Of a DNA stretch of 58,122 nucleotides, positions 1,857 through 55,043 are shown piece after piece. Numbering within the stretch: the first letter of the stretch is position 1; each line of letters opens with the position of its first letter. Position numbers and translations under genes: made by a program. The stretch lies in the NCBI GenBank assembly GCA_001803415.1, contig MHDC01000023.1, positions 1 to 58,122 of the forward strand. Direction: 5' to 3'. A model generated the notes under the pieces. It was not told where the DNA came from. It worked only from the letters and a program-made list of their open reading frames with translations, and searched no databases. This DNA is from Microgenomates group bacterium RBG_16_45_19 (GTDB taxonomy: Bacteria; Patescibacteriota; Microgenomatia; UBA1400; RBG-16-45-19).

Positions 1857-3227
1857 TTATTTGGCACTGACGATGGCAAGTAAGACTTGGATTTGGCCGT
1901 CTTGGGGGACAAAAGCGCCAATCATATCACGTCCGGCTGAGGTAGTAGCGGTAAACAAGCAGGTTTTGGGGGATTGGGGATCAAACTGGATTTGGCTGGA
2001 ATGCAGTTTACCCTGGGGATCTGGCTCGGAGGCGGTGGCGGTGCAAGTACCAGCTTGAAGATCGTAAGTAAAGCGCTTGGGAATATATTCGGCTGGAGCG
2101 AGCAAGCCGTCATAACTGACAGTGGTAATAAAGCCATCCTGTTCGACCCAGACAACAACACCAGTGCGTTCCTGACTTTCATAGGCTACTAAATCCGATC
2201 CTGGTAAAAGCATATTATATTGGGTGAGAAATTCAAGGATTTGAGCTTTAAAGACGGGAAAATTCGCTTTAACTGGCTCATTGGCGATTTGTTCACTGAG
2301 AACATGGTTACCGGGAAGGTAGTGGTAAGCTTGAGCAATTTCGTCCCAAGCTTGCCAGCGAAGTTGCTCCGTGGATTGAGTGGGGGTGGTTTCAGCTGTA
2401 GGAGGTAGAGAAGTGCTTGTCGGTGGTGGTAAGGTCGGTGTGGACGGCAGCCATTCCGGAGTATAAGTTTCGGAAATCGGGATCGGTTCTTTGGCCAAAG
2501 GTAGAGTAGGTTTGGTAAATATGCGGCTTGCTAAAGCGGCAGCAGTTACTAGGCCAGGAATCATAATAGCGGCTGTAGTCTTGAGTTTCTGGGTTCGACG
2601 ATAGGTTTCGAAGGCAGATAGAGCTTGGCGGTGAAGCTGGCTACCGTCAATGTTTGCCTGATATAAAGGATTATCAGGAGTTTTAGCCCAGGTATTTAAG
2701 TGGTTGATTAATTGCTGGTGTTGTTTGGGAGTGAGTTGGATTTGGTCTAGATGTCTGCCAAGAGCGATAAAAGAGGCTTTGTCGTTTACGTTAACAGCGC
2801 GGATTAAAAAAGGTTCCAAGCCTGGATAAGGATTGATCAAATTTTCCGCTAGTAAAAAACCAGATTTGGGATAAATCCGGCGCAAGTCGGCAAAGGAAGA
2901 TTGGTTTGGTCCTGGTGGTTGGTAGAGAAGTCGGGCCAAATGATGAATTTGGACTGCCGAAATCGGCGCCTCTTGAGGCCAGTAGGCTTCAGTTTCAAGA
3001 AGAGGCCGTTGATATAATTGGAGTTGGTTTCTAAAGGAAACAGTAGTCTCCTCTGGATCTCCGGGTACATACAATAACTGATCAAGAATTCTAAGGTTGA
3101 TGTTTGGTTTGAGTAAACTGGATCGAGTTTCTTCAGGAAACAGATTGAATAAATTAACCAGATTAGAAGTAATTTCTGGGGTAAGAGGTATTTCGGTGGA
3201 CGCTGGGGAAAGAGAAGTCTCGTTCAT
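1857..3227 (-). CDS. Hypothetical single-pass membrane protein with Pro/Thr linker
   Basis: 456-aa ORF; hydrophobic stretch AAIMIPGLVTAAALA followed by PSTPTLPPPTSTSLPP linker. Confidence 0.7.
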   Translation of the reverse strand: MNETSLSPASTEIPLTPEITSNLVNLFNLFPEETRSSLLKPNINLRILDQLLYVPGDPEETTVSFRNQLQLYQRPLLETEAYWPQEAPISAVQIHHLARLLYQPPGPNQSSFADLRRIYPKSGFLLAENLINPYPGLEPFLIRAVNVNDKASFIALGRHLDQIQLTPKQHQQLINHLNTWAKTPDNPLYQANIDGSQLHRQALSAFETYRRTQKLKTTAAIMIPGLVTAAALASRIFTKPTLPLAKEPIPISETYTPEWLPSTPTLPPPTSTSLPPTAETTPTQSTEQLRWQAWDEIAQAYHYLPGNHVLSEQIANEPVKANFPVFKAQILEFLTQYNMLLPGSDLVAYESQERTGVVVWVEQDGFITTVSYDGLLAPAEYIPKRFTYDLQAGTCTATASEPDPQGKLHSSQIQFDPQSPKTCLFTATTSAGRDMIGAFVPQDGQIQVLLAIVSAK

Positions 3228-3231
3228 ATGA

Positions 3232-4575
3232 CTATTGCGGGGAGAGGGTTAAGAGGGCGGTGGCGTTGGGGGCGAGGGGGAGTGAGTGAGAGAGGGTAGC
3301 ACCGGTGGTGGCCAGGAGGGTATTTGAGGGCAAGCGGCCTAAGAATTCGGTAGTCAGGTGGTAGGCACCGGGAGTAAGGTGAGTAAATTGAATCGGTACG
3401 GTTTCGGTGTTTTTGCCATCGGGATCATAGTTAGTCACCAGCAGTTGGATAGCACCGGCGGCATCTTTAGCAGCCAGGGCTTTAACGTAAGTGCCAAAAC
3501 CGGAAACGTCGAGGCGTTCAGGCCCTAAGCGATTTAATAAACGCAGAGCCTGATAACGGGGCTTCTCCCGACTGCCAAAATCTTGATGGGTCAGTAGACC
3601 CCAGCGGCCCCAAAACTCTTGGCCGGCCGGGTCTTTGCCGTCTTGAATTTCAAAGACAAAGGCATGTTTGATGGCCGGGGTGACCAGGCTCATAGTGGCA
3701 ACGGTGTGAGCGGCAGCCACCTCGGTGTCATAAAAAGGATGATTCTCACTGGTTAAACCCCATTCACTGATGATTGGTTCAACGGTGGAAAAATACTGGG
3801 GATAGGCTTGGAGAAACTTATAGAACTTGACCAGATCGTCGAAAAATTCGGCCGGTTTAGCCGAATACTGATGCCAGGAGTAAAAATCGAGGCGGAGCTG
3901 GTTTTGAGCGGCATGATTGAAAAAACGAGATAACCAGTTGTCATAAAGAGCGGAAGTGGCCGGACCGCCAAAGCGAAATGGTTGGACGTTTTTGGCGGCG
4001 GCGGCACCGCGGGCGGCATAAAGATAGAGGGTTAAGTAGTCTTTGTCGCCGTAGGTTTTCCACCGGCCGAATAAATCGGGCTCATTCCAAACTTCGTAAT
4101 AGACGTCGGTCAAATTCAAGCCGCTAGTGCCACTGACATGCTCGATGGTGGCTTGGACCAGAGCTTGCCAAGCAGACCAAGACTGAGGGATACCGGTGAT
4201 ATCGCCATTAGCCAGGGTGGGCGGCAGGTAAGACAGGGAGAGAAAGGGTTTAGCCCCCGCCACGGTGATTTGATTAAGCAAAGCGTCCAATTTTGACCAA
4301 TCGTATTGGAGCGTACCGGCGTCAGTCCGGGTCATCGGTTCATAAAAATCATAGATATGGTCCAGGCGGATGTATTCGGGTTGGAGGGCTTGAAGTTTAG
4401 GCAATACCGGAGTGAATTGATAGGCGGGCGCCTCGCCGCCTTGAGCTAGAGACCGCCAGGGACGAACCAGGGGCCCGGGGCTGGTTTGGGTGTCGATCAC
4501 CAAAGCGGCCGGAACCGAGCGAGCCAGACCTAAAAAATTCTGAACGGTATCCAGATGGAGACGCAAACTAATCAA
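3232..4575 (-). CDS. Glycoside hydrolase family 39-like protein (clan GH-A); true start probably further upstream
   Basis: YIRLDH, EVWNEPD acid/base motif, FGGPA, SWHQY, ISEWG nucleophile motif. Confidence 0.85.
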   Translation of the reverse strand: MISLRLHLDTVQNFLGLARSVPAALVIDTQTSPGPLVRPWRSLAQGGEAPAYQFTPVLPKLQALQPEYIRLDHIYDFYEPMTRTDAGTLQYDWSKLDALLNQITVAGAKPFLSLSYLPPTLANGDITGIPQSWSAWQALVQATIEHVSGTSGLNLTDVYYEVWNEPDLFGRWKTYGDKDYLTLYLYAARGAAAAKNVQPFRFGGPATSALYDNWLSRFFNHAAQNQLRLDFYSWHQYSAKPAEFFDDLVKFYKFLQAYPQYFSTVEPIISEWGLTSENHPFYDTEVAAAHTVATMSLVTPAIKHAFVFEIQDGKDPAGQEFWGRWGLLTHQDFGSREKPRYQALRLLNRLGPERLDVSGFGTYVKALAAKDAAGAIQLLVTNYDPDGKNTETVPIQFTHLTPGAYHLTTEFLGRLPSNTLLATTGATLSHSLPLAPNATALLTLSPQ

Positions 4576-4673
4576 GCAAAACAGAAGAAATAAGGAAACC
4601 AGGCTTTTTCGAAGATAGTGGGTTTTTAGCTTTTGTCTGGTTATAGTTTAACCCTATCACATCAAGCCTCCAC

Positions 4674-4702
4674 TTGACATTAGTTAGCAGTCTTGGTAAT
4701 CT
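4674..4702 (+). promoter_or_regulatory. Sigma70-type promoter of the hrcA operon
   Basis: TTGACA (4674-4679), 17 bp spacer, TAATCT (4697-4702) preceded by TG; SD AAGGAG at 4728-4733. Confidence 0.75.
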
Positions 4703-4710
4703 GCTGCTAA
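4684..4710. promoter_or_regulatory. CIRCE-like HrcA operator
   Basis: TTAGCAGTC-N9-TGCTGCTAA versus consensus TTAGCACTC-N9-GAGTGCTAA; same 27-bp geometry, overlaps the -10, directly upstream of hrcA. Confidence 0.85.
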
Positions 4711-4739
4711 CAAGCAACTGCCATATAAAGGAGTGACTT

Positions 4740-5462
4740 ATGACGGACTTGACCGACAGGCAAGTGCAAATCTTGAGGGCGGTAGTGGAAGAATACATGC
4801 AGACCGCCGAACCGGTGGGGTCGGAAACCTTAGACCGGAAATATAACCTGGGAGTATCACCGGCGACCATCAGAAATGAGATGGCCTATTTAGTTGACCT
4901 AGGGTACCTCAAGCAACCACACACTTCAGCCGGGCGAATACCCTCAGCAACGGCGATCCGTTTGTACATCGACGAAATGATGAAGGAGCGGAGCTTAACG
5001 GTGGCGGAAGAAGTCTCCGCCAAGGAGAAAGTCTGGGAAAAACGGGAAGTATTGGGAGATGTGTTAAGGGCGGTGACATATGAATTAGCCAGACGAACCG
5101 GTTCGATTGGGGTAGCGGTGACCGATGAGTTAAAAGTTTACCATGCCGGTTATGCCCATGTCTTAGATTTACCGGAATTTTACGATATCGATGTGACTAA
5201 GTCGGTCTTATCGATGTTGGACGAAGCCCAACAGTTATTAGATCTATTCCGCCGGGCGCACGATGACCGGGAAATCCATGTCTTGCTCGGAGATGATTTT
5301 GGCAATCAATTTTTAGAGCCGGTGGGGGTGGTTTACACTGACTTCCAGACTAGTCATCACCGCGGTTCGGTGGGAGTAATCGGGTCGGCCAGGTTAGATT
5401 ACCCGTACGTGGTACCGCTGGTGAGACATTTCGGGCAATTGATTCGGGAATTTTCGGCTTAA
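4740..5462 (+). CDS. hrcA: Heat-inducible transcription repressor HrcA (short form)
   Basis: LTDRQVQILRAVVEEY, EPVGSETL, VSPATIRNEM, QPHTSAGRIPS, GVIGSARLDY; first gene before grpE-dnaK-dnaJ. Confidence 0.95.
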   Translation: MTDLTDRQVQILRAVVEEYMQTAEPVGSETLDRKYNLGVSPATIRNEMAYLVDLGYLKQPHTSAGRIPSATAIRLYIDEMMKERSLTVAEEVSAKEKVWEKREVLGDVLRAVTYELARRTGSIGVAVTDELKVYHAGYAHVLDLPEFYDIDVTKSVLSMLDEAQQLLDLFRRAHDDREIHVLLGDDFGNQFLEPVGVVYTDFQTSHHRGSVGVIGSARLDYPYVVPLVRHFGQLIREFSA

Positions 5463-50815: not shown

Positions 50816-50862
50816 CTCATGGAGAGTTAAATAGTGTTCGGCTTTTCAGTATAATGATGTTT

Positions 50863-51870
50863 ATGACTAAAGGTCAGTACAGCGTCTCAGATGCGGTATT
50901 AAAAAAGCCGGATTTGTTGGAGCGAGAAGAAACAGTGCTTAGAGATATCACTAAGCGCAGTGGATTTGAAGCGGAAAAGCGGTTGGGGGACAGCCGCTAT
51001 TGGACCAGAGATTTTGCCGGGGCGGTGTTTTATCTGGGAAAGTATCAAGGCAAAGCGGCGGTGTTAAAAATTCAAGGGACCAAGCCACCGATAGCGGAGA
51101 TTGACCAGATTGAAAATTTTGCAGCCCAGAATCAAAGTCAAGTGATCCGGCCGCCAAAATTGTATGGGTACTTAAAATGGGATGAAACTAATAAATATGA
51201 AGCCTTGTTTTTAGAAGAGGTGGAAGGCAAGCCCATTGTCAGTTGCCCGACAAATGGTGAGGAGTTGAAAGAGTTTTTTGAGTTATACCAGGAGTATCGA
51301 CAAAATTGTCTGATCAAGCCGTGGCTGCCAAAACCGGAATTGACGTTGCCGGAGATCATCGAAGCTGATTTCAATAATTGGCGGCTGATTGCCAAGAAGT
51401 TATATCCAGTTCACCCTTTAAGGAAAGCCAACGACGCCGGTTTAATCGGGGTGGTGGTGGCTAAATTAAAGAATGAATATCAAGCTTACGAACCGCAGTT
51501 TATTCATGGGCATTTTTCTTACTTAGATTTGCTTAAGACCAAGAGCGGGGAAGTGATCTTATTCTCCAATTTATTTTGGAAGTACAAGGCGCCATGGTAT
51601 GACTCGGTATTCGGGCAGCACTGGTTTAGGTACCGGTTATCGTCGATTAAGGAAATCGCCCCGAAAGAAGTAGAAGCGCAAAGAGAGCTGTGGCTAAAGG
51701 AGATTTGGGCGTTGGCTCAAAATGAAGAAGATAAAAAACTGATAAACTTGGCCTTGCTCGAGCGGGCGGCGGCGGGCTTGAATTTAGATGCGTTAAGCGT
51801 AGACCCGAAAATCCCGATTACCGAATATTTAGTGGAAGCGACCAGACAGGAAGTGAAGCGACTGCTTTAG
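50863..51870 (+). CDS. Aminoglycoside-phosphotransferase/kinase-fold protein with variant catalytic motifs
   Basis: AVLKI, RPPKLY, LFLEEV, IHGHFS; ATG 50863 lies 7 nt after TATAAT. Confidence 0.7.
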   Translation: MTKGQYSVSDAVLKKPDLLEREETVLRDITKRSGFEAEKRLGDSRYWTRDFAGAVFYLGKYQGKAAVLKIQGTKPPIAEIDQIENFAAQNQSQVIRPPKLYGYLKWDETNKYEALFLEEVEGKPIVSCPTNGEELKEFFELYQEYRQNCLIKPWLPKPELTLPEIIEADFNNWRLIAKKLYPVHPLRKANDAGLIGVVVAKLKNEYQAYEPQFIHGHFSYLDLLKTKSGEVILFSNLFWKYKAPWYDSVFGQHWFRYRLSSIKEIAPKEVEAQRELWLKEIWALAQNEEDKKLINLALLERAAAGLNLDALSVDPKIPITEYLVEATRQEVKRLL

Positions 51871-51908
51871 GATGAAATTTTTCGATATCTAACCGCCCTG
51901 CCTTGGCC
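51764..51908 (+). repeat. 145-bp direct repeat, copy 1
   Basis: Manual ungapped alignment to 53020-53164 gives 18 mismatches. Confidence 0.95.
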
Positions 51909-52931
51909 CAAGCGTTCTATTTTCTTTAAATCAATTAGTTTATCGGTAACTTGATTAATTGTTGGTCGGGGAATCTCGAGTTCCTCCGAGAGCTCTTTTG
52001 GGGTCGCCTCAGTGAACTTTTTTAAATATTCCCAGACTTTAAGTTGGGAGGGCGAGAGGATTTTTTCCAGATTTTCCAAACTTAATAAATCGAGAGCGAG
52101 AGTTGATTGTTTTAATACAACATCTAAAAAGAAGTCAATCCAGGGAACAATGGTAGGCTGCTTGGTTTTAAAGGTTTTCTGACTCTTCCGTAAAGCTAAG
52201 TAATAATCCGGCTTATTATCTTCAATAATTTTTTCGTGGGAAACATATGGCATATAGCTATATCCGACTTGCAATAGCAGTAAATTGGTTAATATCCGTG
52301 ACAATCGACCATTCCCGTCTTGGAAGGGATGAATTTGCAGAAACTGAACGACAAAATGGCTAATGACTAATAGGGGATGATGGCTTTCTCCGGATAGGGC
52401 AGTTTGGGTTGCCCCGGTTAATTCGGTCATGGCAAAAGGGGTGAGATAAGCGGGGGTGGTGTCAAATAAGAGACCAACTGATTGACCGGCGGCGTTGATC
52501 ATTTGGACTTTGTTTTCTTGCTTTTTATACTCCCCTCGGTGAGCTTGGTCTTTATCGACGTATTTTAAGAGTTCCAGGTGAAAGTGTTTAATCAAGTTTT
52601 CAGAAAAGCGTAAGCTTTCCCATGAATCAATGACATTGACTAAGAGCTCGAAATAACCCCGAACTTCTTGCTGATCCCGATCAGCGAATTGTTGGATTGA
52701 GATACCACGCATGAGTTTTTGGATATCCTCATCGGATAACTTAGAGCCTTCAATGCGGGTGGATGCCCCGGTCGAGGTGATAATAACCGATTTTTTTAAC
52801 CGGCTCAAAATCTGGGGGTTGAGTTTGGCGCCGCCAACCCATTGACCCCTCAAACCATCAATTTGGGCAATTTTTTGCCAGATTGAGGCTGGGAGATTTT
52901 TAAGCAGGTGATCAAGAGAAGAAAGGTTCAT
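51867..52931 (-). CDS. Fic-family protein with C-terminal winged HTH
   Basis: STRIEG inhibitory motif, HPFQDGNGRLSR, C-terminal HTH ending GQGRAVRY. Confidence 0.93.
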   Translation of the reverse strand: MNLSSLDHLLKNLPASIWQKIAQIDGLRGQWVGGAKLNPQILSRLKKSVIITSTGASTRIEGSKLSDEDIQKLMRGISIQQFADRDQQEVRGYFELLVNVIDSWESLRFSENLIKHFHLELLKYVDKDQAHRGEYKKQENKVQMINAAGQSVGLLFDTTPAYLTPFAMTELTGATQTALSGESHHPLLVISHFVVQFLQIHPFQDGNGRLSRILTNLLLLQVGYSYMPYVSHEKIIEDNKPDYYLALRKSQKTFKTKQPTIVPWIDFFLDVVLKQSTLALDLLSLENLEKILSPSQLKVWEYLKKFTEATPKELSEELEIPRPTINQVTDKLIDLKKIERLGQGRAVRYRKISS

Positions 52932-53019
52932 GGGGGGGTTCTTATATTCTGGATATATATGATTATATAAGATTATCGATTAAGGTACAAGAGATCTTTG
53001 GGCAGGGATGACATGCGGT

Positions 53020-53164
53020 GGGCGGCGGCGGGCTTGAATTTAGATGCGTTGAGCGTAGATCCGAAAATCCCGATTACCGAATATTTAGTTGAGTCAACAC
53101 GGATGGAAGTGAAGCGACTGCTTTAGGATACAATTTTTTGGTATCTGACCGCCCGGCCTTGACC
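53020..53164 (+). repeat. 145-bp direct repeat, copy 2 (orphan 3' ends of the kinase-fold and Fic genes)
   Basis: Encodes AAAGLNLDALSVDPKIPITEYLVESTRMEVKRLL* on + and GQGRAVRYQKIVS* on -. Confidence 0.95.
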
Positions 53165-53202: not shown

Positions 53203-53745
53203 TCAATAGAATAGGTGAGATAAATAACCCTTGTGGTACAAGGCCAGGAGCATTCCTAGTAACATAAAACCGGTTAATTGTTTCGCCTTTATATGCCATC
53301 TGAATTTCCCGATAAAATAGAGACATCCAATTATCAAAATCAGATGGATAATGCGGATTGCTTCAAAAGGGTAGGTATTTAGTTGGTAGATATAGCCTGG
53401 GTAAGGAATACCAGGTAAGAAACTAAAATTTCTGGCAGCCTCTATGGTTCTCCAGGTTATTAACACGGGAGATATGTGCGGGAGAATGTAGACGCTGTCA
53501 AAGATCTGGTCAAGCAGAATATGGGTTGTCTGTAGTATAAGAGCATTAAATAAGATTTCTTTTAATGGAATTGAATTATTAAGTCCGAATAGCCATCTAG
53601 CCACGAGCAAAACAAGGGTAAAAAAAAGGAATCCTAAACCGTATTGTATGGCGGCAGTGAAGATTAGAGGGAGAAAAAAATCGATGATGCCCATTAGAAT
53701 AATCATAGCTTGGCATTTGAGTATTAGACAATACACATAGAACAT
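53203..53745 (-). CDS. Hypothetical AT-rich membrane protein
   Basis: Several hydrophobic segments; composition visibly AT-richer than the flanks; start uncertain. Confidence 0.6.
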   Translation of the reverse strand: MFYVYCLILKCQAMIILMGIIDFFLPLIFTAAIQYGLGFLFFTLVLLVARWLFGLNNSIPLKEILFNALILQTTHILLDQIFDSVYILPHISPVLITWRTIEAARNFSFLPGIPYPGYIYQLNTYPFEAIRIIHLILIIGCLYFIGKFRWHIKAKQLTGFMLLGMLLALYHKGYLSHLFY

Positions 53746-53787: not shown

Positions 53788-54594
53788 ATGATATGGGATA
53801 ATTTGGCGATTGTGGATGTGGAGACGACCGGGGGTCGGCCACCGTTTAACCGGGTGATTGAGATTGGCGTGGTAGCGGTAGACTACGGACGGGTAAGCGG
53901 GACTTATTCGCAGTTGATTAATCCTGAGTGCTGGCTGCCGCCGGAAATTACCAGCCTCACCGGGATCACCCCGGATCAGTTAGAAAATCAGCCGACATTT
54001 CCACAACTGGTACACCGGTTATTCCCATTTTTAGACGGCCGAGTGATGGTGGCTCATAACGTCCGGTTTGATTTGAGCTTCTTGAAAGCCGAGTTTGACC
54101 GGTTGGGGTATACCTACAACCCCAAACACTGGTGCTCGGTTCGCTTATCCCGGCGGTTATTCCCTCAATACCGAAGCCACGCTTTAGACCGGATCATTGA
54201 GCGGCACGGAATTAAAGTAGCCTTAAGACATCGGGCGCTGGATGATGCCCTGGTAATTTGGGAGTTTATGCAAAAACTTGAACCTCAAGTAAAGACTGGC
54301 TTAATCGAAAAAGCCGTGGGTGAGGTGTTAAAGACACCGGCTTGGCCACCGCGATTGGCGAAAAGTACTTTGGATAAACTGCCAGCGGCACCGGGTGTCT
54401 ACATTTTTTATGACGCTGAGGGGGTGCCGGCGGCGGGGGATTTAGAATCGCAATTAATTGAAGCGCGACTGGTTAAGGAACAACAACCGATCTATAACCG
54501 GAAATTGAGAACCACCCGGGAGTTAATGGCTTTGGCTTTAGTGATGGATAGCCAAAAATATTTAAAAGCCGACAGCAGGCGGCAGAATGGCTGA
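53788..54594 (+). CDS. DEDDh 3'-5' exonuclease (Pol III epsilon-like) with a degenerate GIY-YIG tail
   Basis: VDVETTG, VAHNVRFD, HRALDDA; then LPAAPGVYIFY without the YIG half. Confidence 0.85.
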   Translation: MIWDNLAIVDVETTGGRPPFNRVIEIGVVAVDYGRVSGTYSQLINPECWLPPEITSLTGITPDQLENQPTFPQLVHRLFPFLDGRVMVAHNVRFDLSFLKAEFDRLGYTYNPKHWCSVRLSRRLFPQYRSHALDRIIERHGIKVALRHRALDDALVIWEFMQKLEPQVKTGLIEKAVGEVLKTPAWPPRLAKSTLDKLPAAPGVYIFYDAEGVPAAGDLESQLIEARLVKEQQPIYNRKLRTTRELMALALVMDSQKYLKADSRRQNG

Positions 54595-55043
54595 GGGCTC
54601 TAACCGAAGAGCAGCAGTTGTGCTAGAAATGGATGGGGTTGGAAAAAACCAAGCGGGGGTGTTTTGGCTATCATTTAGGTCAATGCCGCGGAGCTTGCGT
54701 GGGACGCGAGCCAGCGGCTAAATATAACTTGAGGGTACTCAAAGCGTTAAAGCAGAAAAAAATGTTGGATTGGCCGTTTGCCGGGGTGATTGCCATTAGG
54801 GAAGAAAATGAGGTTAACGACCGAGCGGTGACACATATTTTTGATAATTGGCAGCATTTAGGGACGATAAGCGATGAGGCGGAAATAAACACCCCCGGGG
54901 TGTGGGCGCAATTCACCCCGGGGGTGAACAAGTCTAGATTAGACCTAGATACCTATAAAATCCTGAAGCGATATTTGCAGGCAAATGTAAACAGAGTAAG
55001 GTTGGTATCAGGTGATAAAATCAAGTCATGGATTACCGATTGA
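54558..55043 (+). pseudogene. Frameshifted, nonsense-interrupted UvrC/Cho-like C-terminal part of the exonuclease gene
   Basis: Alternative frame IFKSRQQAAEWLRALTEEQQLC*KWMGLEKTKRGCFGYHLGQCRGAC; TAG at 54624-54626. Confidence 0.8.
54889..54928. repeat. Tandem pair of CACCCC-N-GGGGTG palindromes (copies 3 and 4)
   Basis: ACACCCC-C-GGGGTGT and TTCACCCC-G-GGGGTGAA, in frame as NTPGVWAQFTPGVN. Confidence 0.85.

Follow-up and report, generated by a model that had tools for sequence, protein, structure and literature searches.

In the genome of Microgenomates group bacterium RBG_16_45_19 (GenBank GCA_001803415.1), a gene encoding a Fic protein lies between two diverged direct repeats, each of which holds the 3' ends of two convergent genes: the Fic gene itself and a gene for a kinase-like protein. 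The stretch analysed here, which we call the window, is the entire contig MHDC01000023.1 (58,122 nucleotides; contig C23 of the genome), and the genome is a metagenome bin of 1.37 Mb in 45 contigs, 87% complete and with 4% contamination. We suggest that the pair of repeats is the scar left when two diverged kinase-Fic modules recombined by the host's own (RecA-type) machinery, an explanation that we hold with about as much confidence as doubt. The arrangement itself is a real one on the chromosome and is reproducible over assemblies.

The two copies, called R1 (the working gene junction) and R2 (a displaced, non-functional copy), are 145 nucleotides (nt) long, begin 1256 nt apart and were recovered by a repeat search at 88% identity; aligned without gaps they match at 127 of 145 positions, with 18 mismatches and no insertions or deletions, and a MAFFT alignment shows the similarity dropping off sharply at both borders of the 145 nt. 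There is no third copy in the genome. Repeat search and alignment reproduced what a sequence-only reading of this DNA had described, namely ungapped 145-bp repeats with 18 mismatches, each with both convergent 3' ends; in the working copy these 3' ends overlap by 4 nt. Between R1 and R2 we find the Fic open reading frame (ORF) with 88 nt of upstream sequence and nothing else. The claim that the unit consists of the Fic gene plus its own promoter, with no recombinase, is borne out by the ORFs and Pfam matches between the copies, and there is no PF00589 match anywhere on the contig (serine recombinases were not searched for separately). The repeat starts within the codons for ERAAAGLNLDAL, where conservation in the kinase-like family is highest, and the longest identical run of R1 and R2, 31 nt, is found at this extreme left edge; the next longest runs are 29 and 25 nt. 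Upstream of Fic, the joint between spacer and R2 falls within a GC-rich run, with GCGGT (within ...CATGCGGT) on the spacer side and GGGCGGCGGCGGG on the R2 side. This joint also makes a putative ATG-started ORF of 37 codons (53013-53126; MRWAAAGLNLDAL...KRLL, then a stop) that passes through the kinase remnant and points away from the Fic promoter, in divergent orientation. The coordinates of all features are collected in Table 1.

Table 1. Features of the repeat-flanked Fic locus and its direct neighbours, in window coordinates (nt, nucleotides; aa, amino acids).
Feature	Coordinates	Strand	Details
Kinase-like gene	50854..51870	+	338 aa (335 aa from the gene caller's start)
R1, working junction copy	51764..51908		last 35 codons + stop of the kinase-like gene (to 51870); last 14 codons + stop of Fic (51867-51908)
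Class II Fic gene	51867..52931	-	354 aa; Pfam Fic domain plus TrmB/MarR-type winged helix-turn-helix
Fic promoter/operator	52941..52990	-	-35 TTGTAC at 52985-52990; -10 TATAAT at 52962-52967
Putative palindromic operator	52941-52971	-	CTTATATAATCATATATATCCAGAATATAAG
Spacer, Fic -35 to R2	52994..53019		26 nt; without counterpart in the sister-lineage contig L031
R2, displaced non-functional copy	53020..53164		remnants of the kinase-like and Fic 3' ends
Kinase 3' remnant in R2	53020-53126	+	35 codons + stop, without the 5' part
Old block in R2	53090..53104		partner in R1 51834-51848; 9 mismatches in 15 nt over 6 consecutive codons
Fic 3' remnant in R2	53123-53164	-	14 codons + stop
Orphan membrane ORF	53203..53745	-	180 aa (163-167 aa from a later start); GC content 37.6%

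The differences between the two copies carry a clear mark of coding sequence. In the kinase frame eight codons are changed, six of them synonymously (L, D, V, E, T and R) and two by replacement (A>S and Q>M); the Fic frame has six changed codons, of which four are synonymous (G, R, V and Y) and two are replacements (R>Q and S>V). These are exactly the counts of the sequence-only reading, obtained here by an independent classification, and the stop codons are intact in both frames of both copies. When 18 substitutions were placed at random in 20,000 trials, at least 10 synonymous-only codons arose in 0.6% of them, while the observed combination of 10 synonymous and 4 non-synonymous codons never did; pure neutral decay of both copies is thus rejected by the synonymous excess (P<=0.006, simulation). 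The mismatches are also strongly clustered, a feature that the sequence-only reading had not mentioned: nine of the 18 fall within 15 nt (repeat positions 70-84, P=2e-4), whereas the first 31 nt are identical (P=0.01). In this 15-nt block four of six consecutive codons differ by synonymous changes only, including an arginine codon that is two steps away from its partner, and the flanks differ by 6.9%. To judge from these differences, the block looks ancient and coding-constrained and the flanks look young. The clustering makes the repeat a mosaic, which points to gene conversion or to more than one event.

The only close relative that we found is a lineage represented by Logan contigs (L018, L019 and L031), with a kinase-like protein of 79% (78.5%) and a Fic protein of 82% amino-acid identity. 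There the pair is likewise convergent with a 4-nt overlap and sits in the syntenic place, adjoining the same polysaccharide-synthesis gene (76.5% amino-acid identity) and a Fic paralogue; because the identities of kinase and Fic are close to that of the neighbouring core gene and synteny is kept, the working pair looks vertically inherited. Taking the junction of this sister lineage as outgroup, R1 and R2 are closer to each other (127/145) than either is to the outgroup (120 for R1, 115 for R2), and the last 25 nt of the Fic remnant in R2 are identical to it. The sister lineage has a remnant of its own: in L031, a 26-nt stretch located 2 nt past the Fic -35 element encodes VEATRAEVK in frame and aligns with the 3' end of the kinase gene (21/26 positions in a local alignment, shuffle P=0.003), with four synonymous codons versus one replacement relative to its own partner. 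It is shorter and more diverged than R2 and is without the Fic piece. From this remnant it follows that the architecture is either ancestral, with a later partial refresh by conversion in the window lineage, or recurrent.

The structure was also traced in independent assemblies. An identical Fic protein is encoded on four other public contigs: a scaffold (ERZ28563958), two megahit contigs assembled at k=141 (ERZ4902961 and ERZ27254738) and a Logan unitig (SRR4030067). Over R1, Fic, R2, the membrane ORF and a further 3.7 kb, the three longer contigs agree with the window at 99.96-100% identity. R1 and R2 have no k-mer in common at k=141, so the assembled path needs real reads over every junction. 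The Logan contig, built at k=31, is bounded at each end by a copy of the 31-mer that R1 and R2 share; its unitig joins the upstream region of Fic to the repeat start, which fits a linear and a circular form alike. About 310 nt upstream of R1, inside the kinase-like gene, all three longer contigs have a break or a gap of Ns in the interval 51389-51452: the megahit contigs stop at about window positions 51419 and 51452, and in the scaffold Ns fill window positions 51389-51451. This is perhaps a strain-level recombination boundary, or else a drop in coverage at GGTGGTGGTGG; the breaks hint at strain heterogeneity.

Repeats of this kind are not confined to the window. Scanning 600 nt upstream against 400 nt downstream of Fic in related loci, with shifted positions in the same loci as controls, we found direct repeats flanking Fic in 11 of 55 loci versus 18 of 530 shifted controls (Fisher P=2e-5), or in 8 of 52 versus 14 of 500 (P=4e-4) when three array-like loci (L043, L060 and L070) were left out; this enrichment, a side result of the analysis, amounts to about 7 times over the controls. 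In several loci the downstream copy begins 0-22 nt past the Fic stop codon. The repeats are unlike in sequence from locus to locus, so no common attachment site is visible. The clearest parallel is L094 (CAZQSS010000001.1), in which the 3' end of an IscU (NifU_N) gene, comprising its last 25 codons and the stop, recurs directly after Fic (3731-3805 and 5062-5136). These copies are 79% identical and differ by seven synonymous versus five replacement codons, one of the latter being a stop inside the displaced copy. The same structure is present in further contigs from other Hainich assemblies, and a search for an empty L094 site returned occupied contigs only; 11 related genomes carry IscS-IscU without Fic, the relatives at genus level being at a distance (64-74% amino-acid identity) too great to define the borders of the insert. 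Pooled over the window, L031 and L094, 21 synonymous versus 10 replacement codons are observed, P=0.0017 when tested against a model in which one copy is constrained and the other decays. This suggests that the Fic unit may repeatedly come to lie between two alleles of the 3' end of a neighbouring gene.

For the window, we propose that DNA from a related lineage would have paired with the chromosome in the conserved kinase stretch coding for ERAAAGLNLDAL, where the repeat opens with its 31 identical nucleotides. The Fic unit would then have been inserted either by a single, Campbell-like crossover or by one homologous end together with one illegitimate joint, a process termed homology-facilitated illegitimate recombination (HFIR), and the resident gene ends would have been pushed to the far side of Fic. 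R2 would in this case be the leftover of a second kinase-Fic module, the Fic body of which may have been replaced by the orphan membrane ORF, and later partial gene conversion between the copies might have produced the mosaic repeat. In this account three elements are inferred: that one copy is foreign, which type of crossover took place, and how the events were ordered. The proposal is in line with the closer relationship of R1 and R2 to each other than to the outgroup, with the start of the repeat in the most conserved motif of the kinase family, with the mismatch cluster and its mostly synonymous codons, with the remnant beside the Fic -35 element in the sister lineage, and with the independent parallel at L094. 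It also agrees with the presence of RecA in a genome whose Fic unit and surrounding contig carry no recombinase, and with the published cases of HFIR (PMC5361080) and e14 (PMC6379469). The locus shows what is expected of Campbell-type insertion, direct repeats of a shared homologous segment with an insert between them, and likewise what is expected of HFIR, a conserved anchor (the 31 identical nt) upstream of the displaced part.

Several observations weigh against this explanation. After polarisation with the sister lineage, the R1 branch has five changes, all of them synonymous, but on the R2 branch three codons differ only synonymously and four by replacement, a pattern indistinguishable from neutral decay. 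Tested alone against the model of one constrained and one decaying copy, under which ~40% of changed codons are expected to be synonymous, the window shows a weaker excess (P=0.018), and since the changes on the R2 branch are neutral-like, a purely local origin has to be reckoned with. The view that both copies evolved inside functional genes therefore stands only in part: the synonymous bias argues against simple duplication followed by neutral decay, but the R2 branch gives it no further help. The mosaic of mismatches weakens the case for a single event. The vertical appearance of the working pair leaves it ambiguous which copy, if any, is foreign, and the remnant in L031 speaks against one recent Campbell event. 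Of the integration by homology that had been proposed from the sequence, recombination with a diverged copy is still plausible, whereas its recency is opposed by the sister lineage. Finally, the counterparts that one might hope to see elsewhere are missing from the collections searched. No homologue in any of them has an R2-type end on either kinase or Fic, and a search of a 5.8-billion-cluster protein collection with a C-terminal kinase piece bearing the R2 end returned an R1-type fragment only. No Fic-less (empty or excised) allele was found, every contig with the identical RNase_T neighbour having Fic, and a degenerate 69-nt pattern covering both repeat types had no match in the metagenome contigs of the Joint Genome Institute.

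The likeliest rival explanation is a local origin, by tandem duplication of the 1,256-bp segment (repeat, Fic and upstream sequence) or from an ancestral tandem kinase-Fic pair, followed by deletion of most of the second copy and replacement of its Fic body by the membrane ORF, with intermittent gene conversion from R1 holding parts of R2 similar. We consider it unlikely but to be taken seriously. The contrast between the two branches looks as if R1 were constrained and R2 decaying, R1 and R2 are nearer to each other than to the orthologue, and the mosaic blocks fit conversion tracts; the remnant at this place in the sister lineage agrees with a tandem arrangement in the ancestor, and the presence of Fic sequence in R2 means that the event took place after kinase and Fic had become neighbours. 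What speaks for recombination with a diverged module instead is the synonymous excess, both in the window and, more strongly, in the pool with L031 and L094, together with the old block, whose synonymous-only codons and two-step arginine imply long evolution under coding constraint. A local origin would also need several independent deletions that left the same junction piece in two lineages.

One could also think of a non-autonomous site-specific cassette, comparable to e14 in icd or to a cis-mobilisable element, that would be moved in trans by a recombinase from elsewhere or by a hypothetical activity associated with the Fic family, R1 and R2 being its attL and attR. The anatomy is indeed e14/icd-like, in that an alternative gene end is supplied and the old end displaced (PMC6379469). 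The genome has PF00589 matches on contigs C28, C8, C39, C4 and C22 and encodes four full-length tyrosine recombinases, all on contigs other than that of the window; the Fic family is 60-76% identical over many phyla, with its operator travelling along, and both the enrichment of flanking repeats and the position of the downstream copy just after the Fic stop would suit a moving unit. We nevertheless give this only a small chance. Neither the unit nor the contig has a recombinase, the repeats differ completely between loci and reveal no common att site, and the 42 nt of Fic held by R2 fit a homologous exchange of modules rather than insertion into a naive site. Moreover, no empty site or circle occurs among the contigs searched, the family is nearly absent from viral contigs, and L043, L060 and L070 carry the same repeat around neighbouring genes too. 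Two more conventional kinds of insertion were rejected: a transposon-type target-site duplication, because R2 contains part of the cargo Fic gene, the copies being 12% different with a coding bias, and an integron cassette, given that the repeats are coding gene ends, that no inverted repeat or attC-like palindrome was reported within them and that the contig has no tyrosine recombinase.

The sequence-only reading had gone further and proposed a reversible, recombinase-free cassette. It is correct that a crossover anywhere in the repeat would keep the kinase ORF intact, with at most two amino-acid changes, and would remove Fic and its promoter. RecA is encoded in the genome, and the Logan unitig running from shared 31-mer to shared 31-mer is equally compatible with a circle and with a linear form. 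An actively reversible system, with appreciable gain and loss of Fic through RecA at R1 and R2 and re-entry of a 1,256-bp circle, is nonetheless very improbable: identical runs of 31, 29 and 25 nt within an 88% match make a poor RecA substrate, all four assemblies are occupied, no R2-type end is joined to a kinase body in the collections, and a divergence of 12% means that the copies have long coexisted and diverged, neither homogenised nor lost. Through the repeats, Fic could on rare occasions be lost by RecA-dependent recombination with the kinase gene left intact; nothing indicates that such loss occurs or serves as a switch. An assembly chimera of two co-occurring strains, which the contamination of the bin and the contig ends and N-gap within the kinase gene might suggest, is extremely improbable, because the three longer contigs, from two kinds of assembler, follow the same path and the Logan unitig shows the same junction of Fic upstream region and repeat start.

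With respect to its cargo, the Fic protein is predicted from its sequence to be of the protein-AMPylase type, in class II of the Fic/Fido proteins. It matches PF02661 with E=9e-14 (52.5 bits versus a cut-off of 24), its catalytic motif HPFQDGNGRLSR agrees with the pattern HPFx[D/E]GN[G/K]R, and an inhibitory motif S-T-R-I-E-G (TSTGASTRIEGS), which is kept in relatives, lies at about residues 53-64, N-terminal to the Fic core; a winged helix forms the C-terminus. In these features it resembles the class II Fic proteins with a C-terminal winged helix-turn-helix (wHTH) such as SoFic, Bacteroides BT_2513 and PDB entry 8uqu, which have in common the motif HPFx[D/E]GNGR, an inhibitory SxxxE[G/N] helix and the winged helix. 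It differs from the solved members by its low sequence similarity, also to the nearest of them, 8uqu (E=2e-35 over residues 35-274). Elsewhere in the same genome, at the end of contig C8 (86-1084 and 2151-2630), a further Fic paralogue (29% identity) and a full-length tyrosine recombinase gene stand about 1 kb apart.

The element TATAATCTTATATAGTTAAAGTATAAGA or close variants of it occurs upstream of at least 22 of 74 Fic family loci, from many phyla, and in 0 of 74 controls placed inside ORFs. As a family pattern (window 52941-52990 and loci L032-L101), the conserved promoter and operator just upstream of Fic take the form TTGACT-17-TATAAT, overlapping a palindrome TATAATCTTATATAGTT..TATAAGA, both half-sites of which seem to vary together among family variants. 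The operator is probably the binding site of the Fic protein's own wHTH domain.

The family at large is very big, unusually conserved and widely spread, with more than 540 loci in GTDB: 7,995 of 8,000 scored candidates have E<=1e-40, and members that are 60-76% identical come from Patescibacteria, Chloroflexota, Omnitrophota, Chlamydiota, Gammaproteobacteria and one archaeon. Carriage by phages was rejected, as IMG/VR gave one distant match only, and searching the literature for Fic cassettes flanked by direct repeats gave nothing specific. The three array-like loci, from Nealsonbacteria (L043), from a Lake Baikal metagenome-assembled genome (L070, Candidatus Taenariivivens baikalensis) and from Omnitrophota (L060), have one 45-100-nt repeat between successive genes, up to 98% identical and also around genes other than Fic, in a layout that resembles a cassette array; the repeat may represent attC-like sites or repeated promoters. 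We speculate, with little confidence, that the Fic-wHTH family is a widespread single-gene selfish cassette, consisting of promoter, operator and ORF (~1.1-1.6 kb) and having no recombinase of its own. If so, it may insert beside or inside the 3' ends of host genes in many phyla, leaving diverged repeats derived from the target; the window, the sister lineage and the IscU locus L094 may be three instances, and insertion may depend either on host recombination or on some unrecognised activity associated with the cassette.

The kinase-like protein has no Pfam match and no sequence match in the PDB. Its AlphaFold model is of high confidence (pLDDT, predicted local distance difference test, 93.6), and the best Foldseek matches of this model are YtaA, APH(4)-Ia, amicoumacin kinase and fructosamine kinase, with TM (template modelling) scores of up to 0.65. 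The predicted fold is that of the APH/CotS-type small-molecule kinases, and the protein is kinase-like at most: the family has an invariant motif HGHFSxxD, with invariant residues H215, H217 and D222, in place of the canonical HGDxxxxN, for which reason we name it only "kinase-like". Related genes are patchily distributed: 9 of the order's 286 genomes have one, at no more than 43% identity and never adjoining Fic, and the gene is absent in the other 7 genomes of the same taxonomic family; look-ups of the exact kinase-like and membrane proteins gave no further record. In an unrelated Patescibacteria genome (L093) a distant homologue (31%; 2109-3191) is located about 750 nt upstream of another member of the Fic family (3938-5032). 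This second kinase-like/Fic neighbourhood is independent of the first and was seen at 1 of 80 loci.

On the far side of R2, the orphan membrane ORF stands where the body of a second Fic copy would be, and its stop codon lies 38 nt after R2. It has no Pfam or NCBIfam match and no homologue in the 286 genomes of the order; a single weak relative (31%, E=9e-6) was found among 1.84 billion representatives. In another locus, L112, a convergent DUF1761 gene lies beside a kinase-like gene, likewise with a 4-nt overlap. That a membrane gene was the ancestral partner of the kinase was rejected, as the membrane proteins of the window and L112 are not homologous. Further along (53788-55043), an ORF for an RNase_T-type exonuclease ends in a truncated GIY-YIG start (PGVYIFYD...) and beyond it lies a separate ORF of 136 aa with a match to the C-terminal portion of excinuclease Cho; the pair resembles a split or internally deleted exonuclease-Cho fusion gene.

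The closest analogues of this arrangement are the prophage e14, which sits in icd, and the orphan 3' ends known from Rhs and type VI secretion system (T6SS) loci; here the cargo is a Fic gene and there is no recombinase in cis. According to the passage of PMC6379469 that cites Hill et al. 1989, e14 supplies an alternative 3' end to icd and displaces a 163-bp icd' as a diverged direct repeat, and its excision restores an intact icd with a conservative amino-acid change. As with e14 or phage 21 in icd of E. coli K-12, a direct repeat of the target's 3' end stands on both sides of the insert in the window. The prophage is ~15 kb in size. It encodes its own integrase, whereas the insert in the window is one 1.1-kb Fic gene without a recombinase, and the repeat of the window, unlike that of e14, includes the end of the cargo gene itself.

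In HFIR, a conserved stretch upstream serves as anchor for the incoming DNA, and the displaced resident 3' end persists downstream as a remnant, with no dedicated recombinase (PMC5361080, the passage on HFIR citing de Vries & Wackernagel 2002, Prudhomme 2002 and Meier & Wackernagel 2003). The likeness of the window to HFIR is one of sequence anatomy. Rhs, contact-dependent inhibition (CDI) and T6SS effector loci, with their orphan 3' ends and immunity arrays, are like the window in having a displaced end without a dedicated recombinase; they exchange toxin tips and immunity genes and can build arrays, whereas the window has a kinase-like end with a convergent Fic gene and a single remnant. Campbell-type insertion-duplication leaves repeats of exactly the shared segment around the insert, as seen here, and is reversible by a second crossover. 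It is known chiefly as a laboratory tool or for plasmids. A natural, non-replicating circle of 1,256 bp and its transfer from cell to cell are hypothetical in the case of the window.

Bacteria of the candidate phyla radiation (CPR) have tiny genomes with few recognisable mobile elements, and yet they exchange accessory genes. The displaced gene end described here, with no recombinase in cis, is direct sequence evidence for host recombination, homologous or illegitimate, moving single defence- or toxin-like genes among related CPR lineages. The window alone is a recombination scar; the enrichment of repeats across the Fic family and the operator that travels with the gene are the leads most worth following. 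If the pattern of flanking repeats holds at the level of strains, it would amount to a simple and previously undescribed route by which a self-regulated gene can spread.

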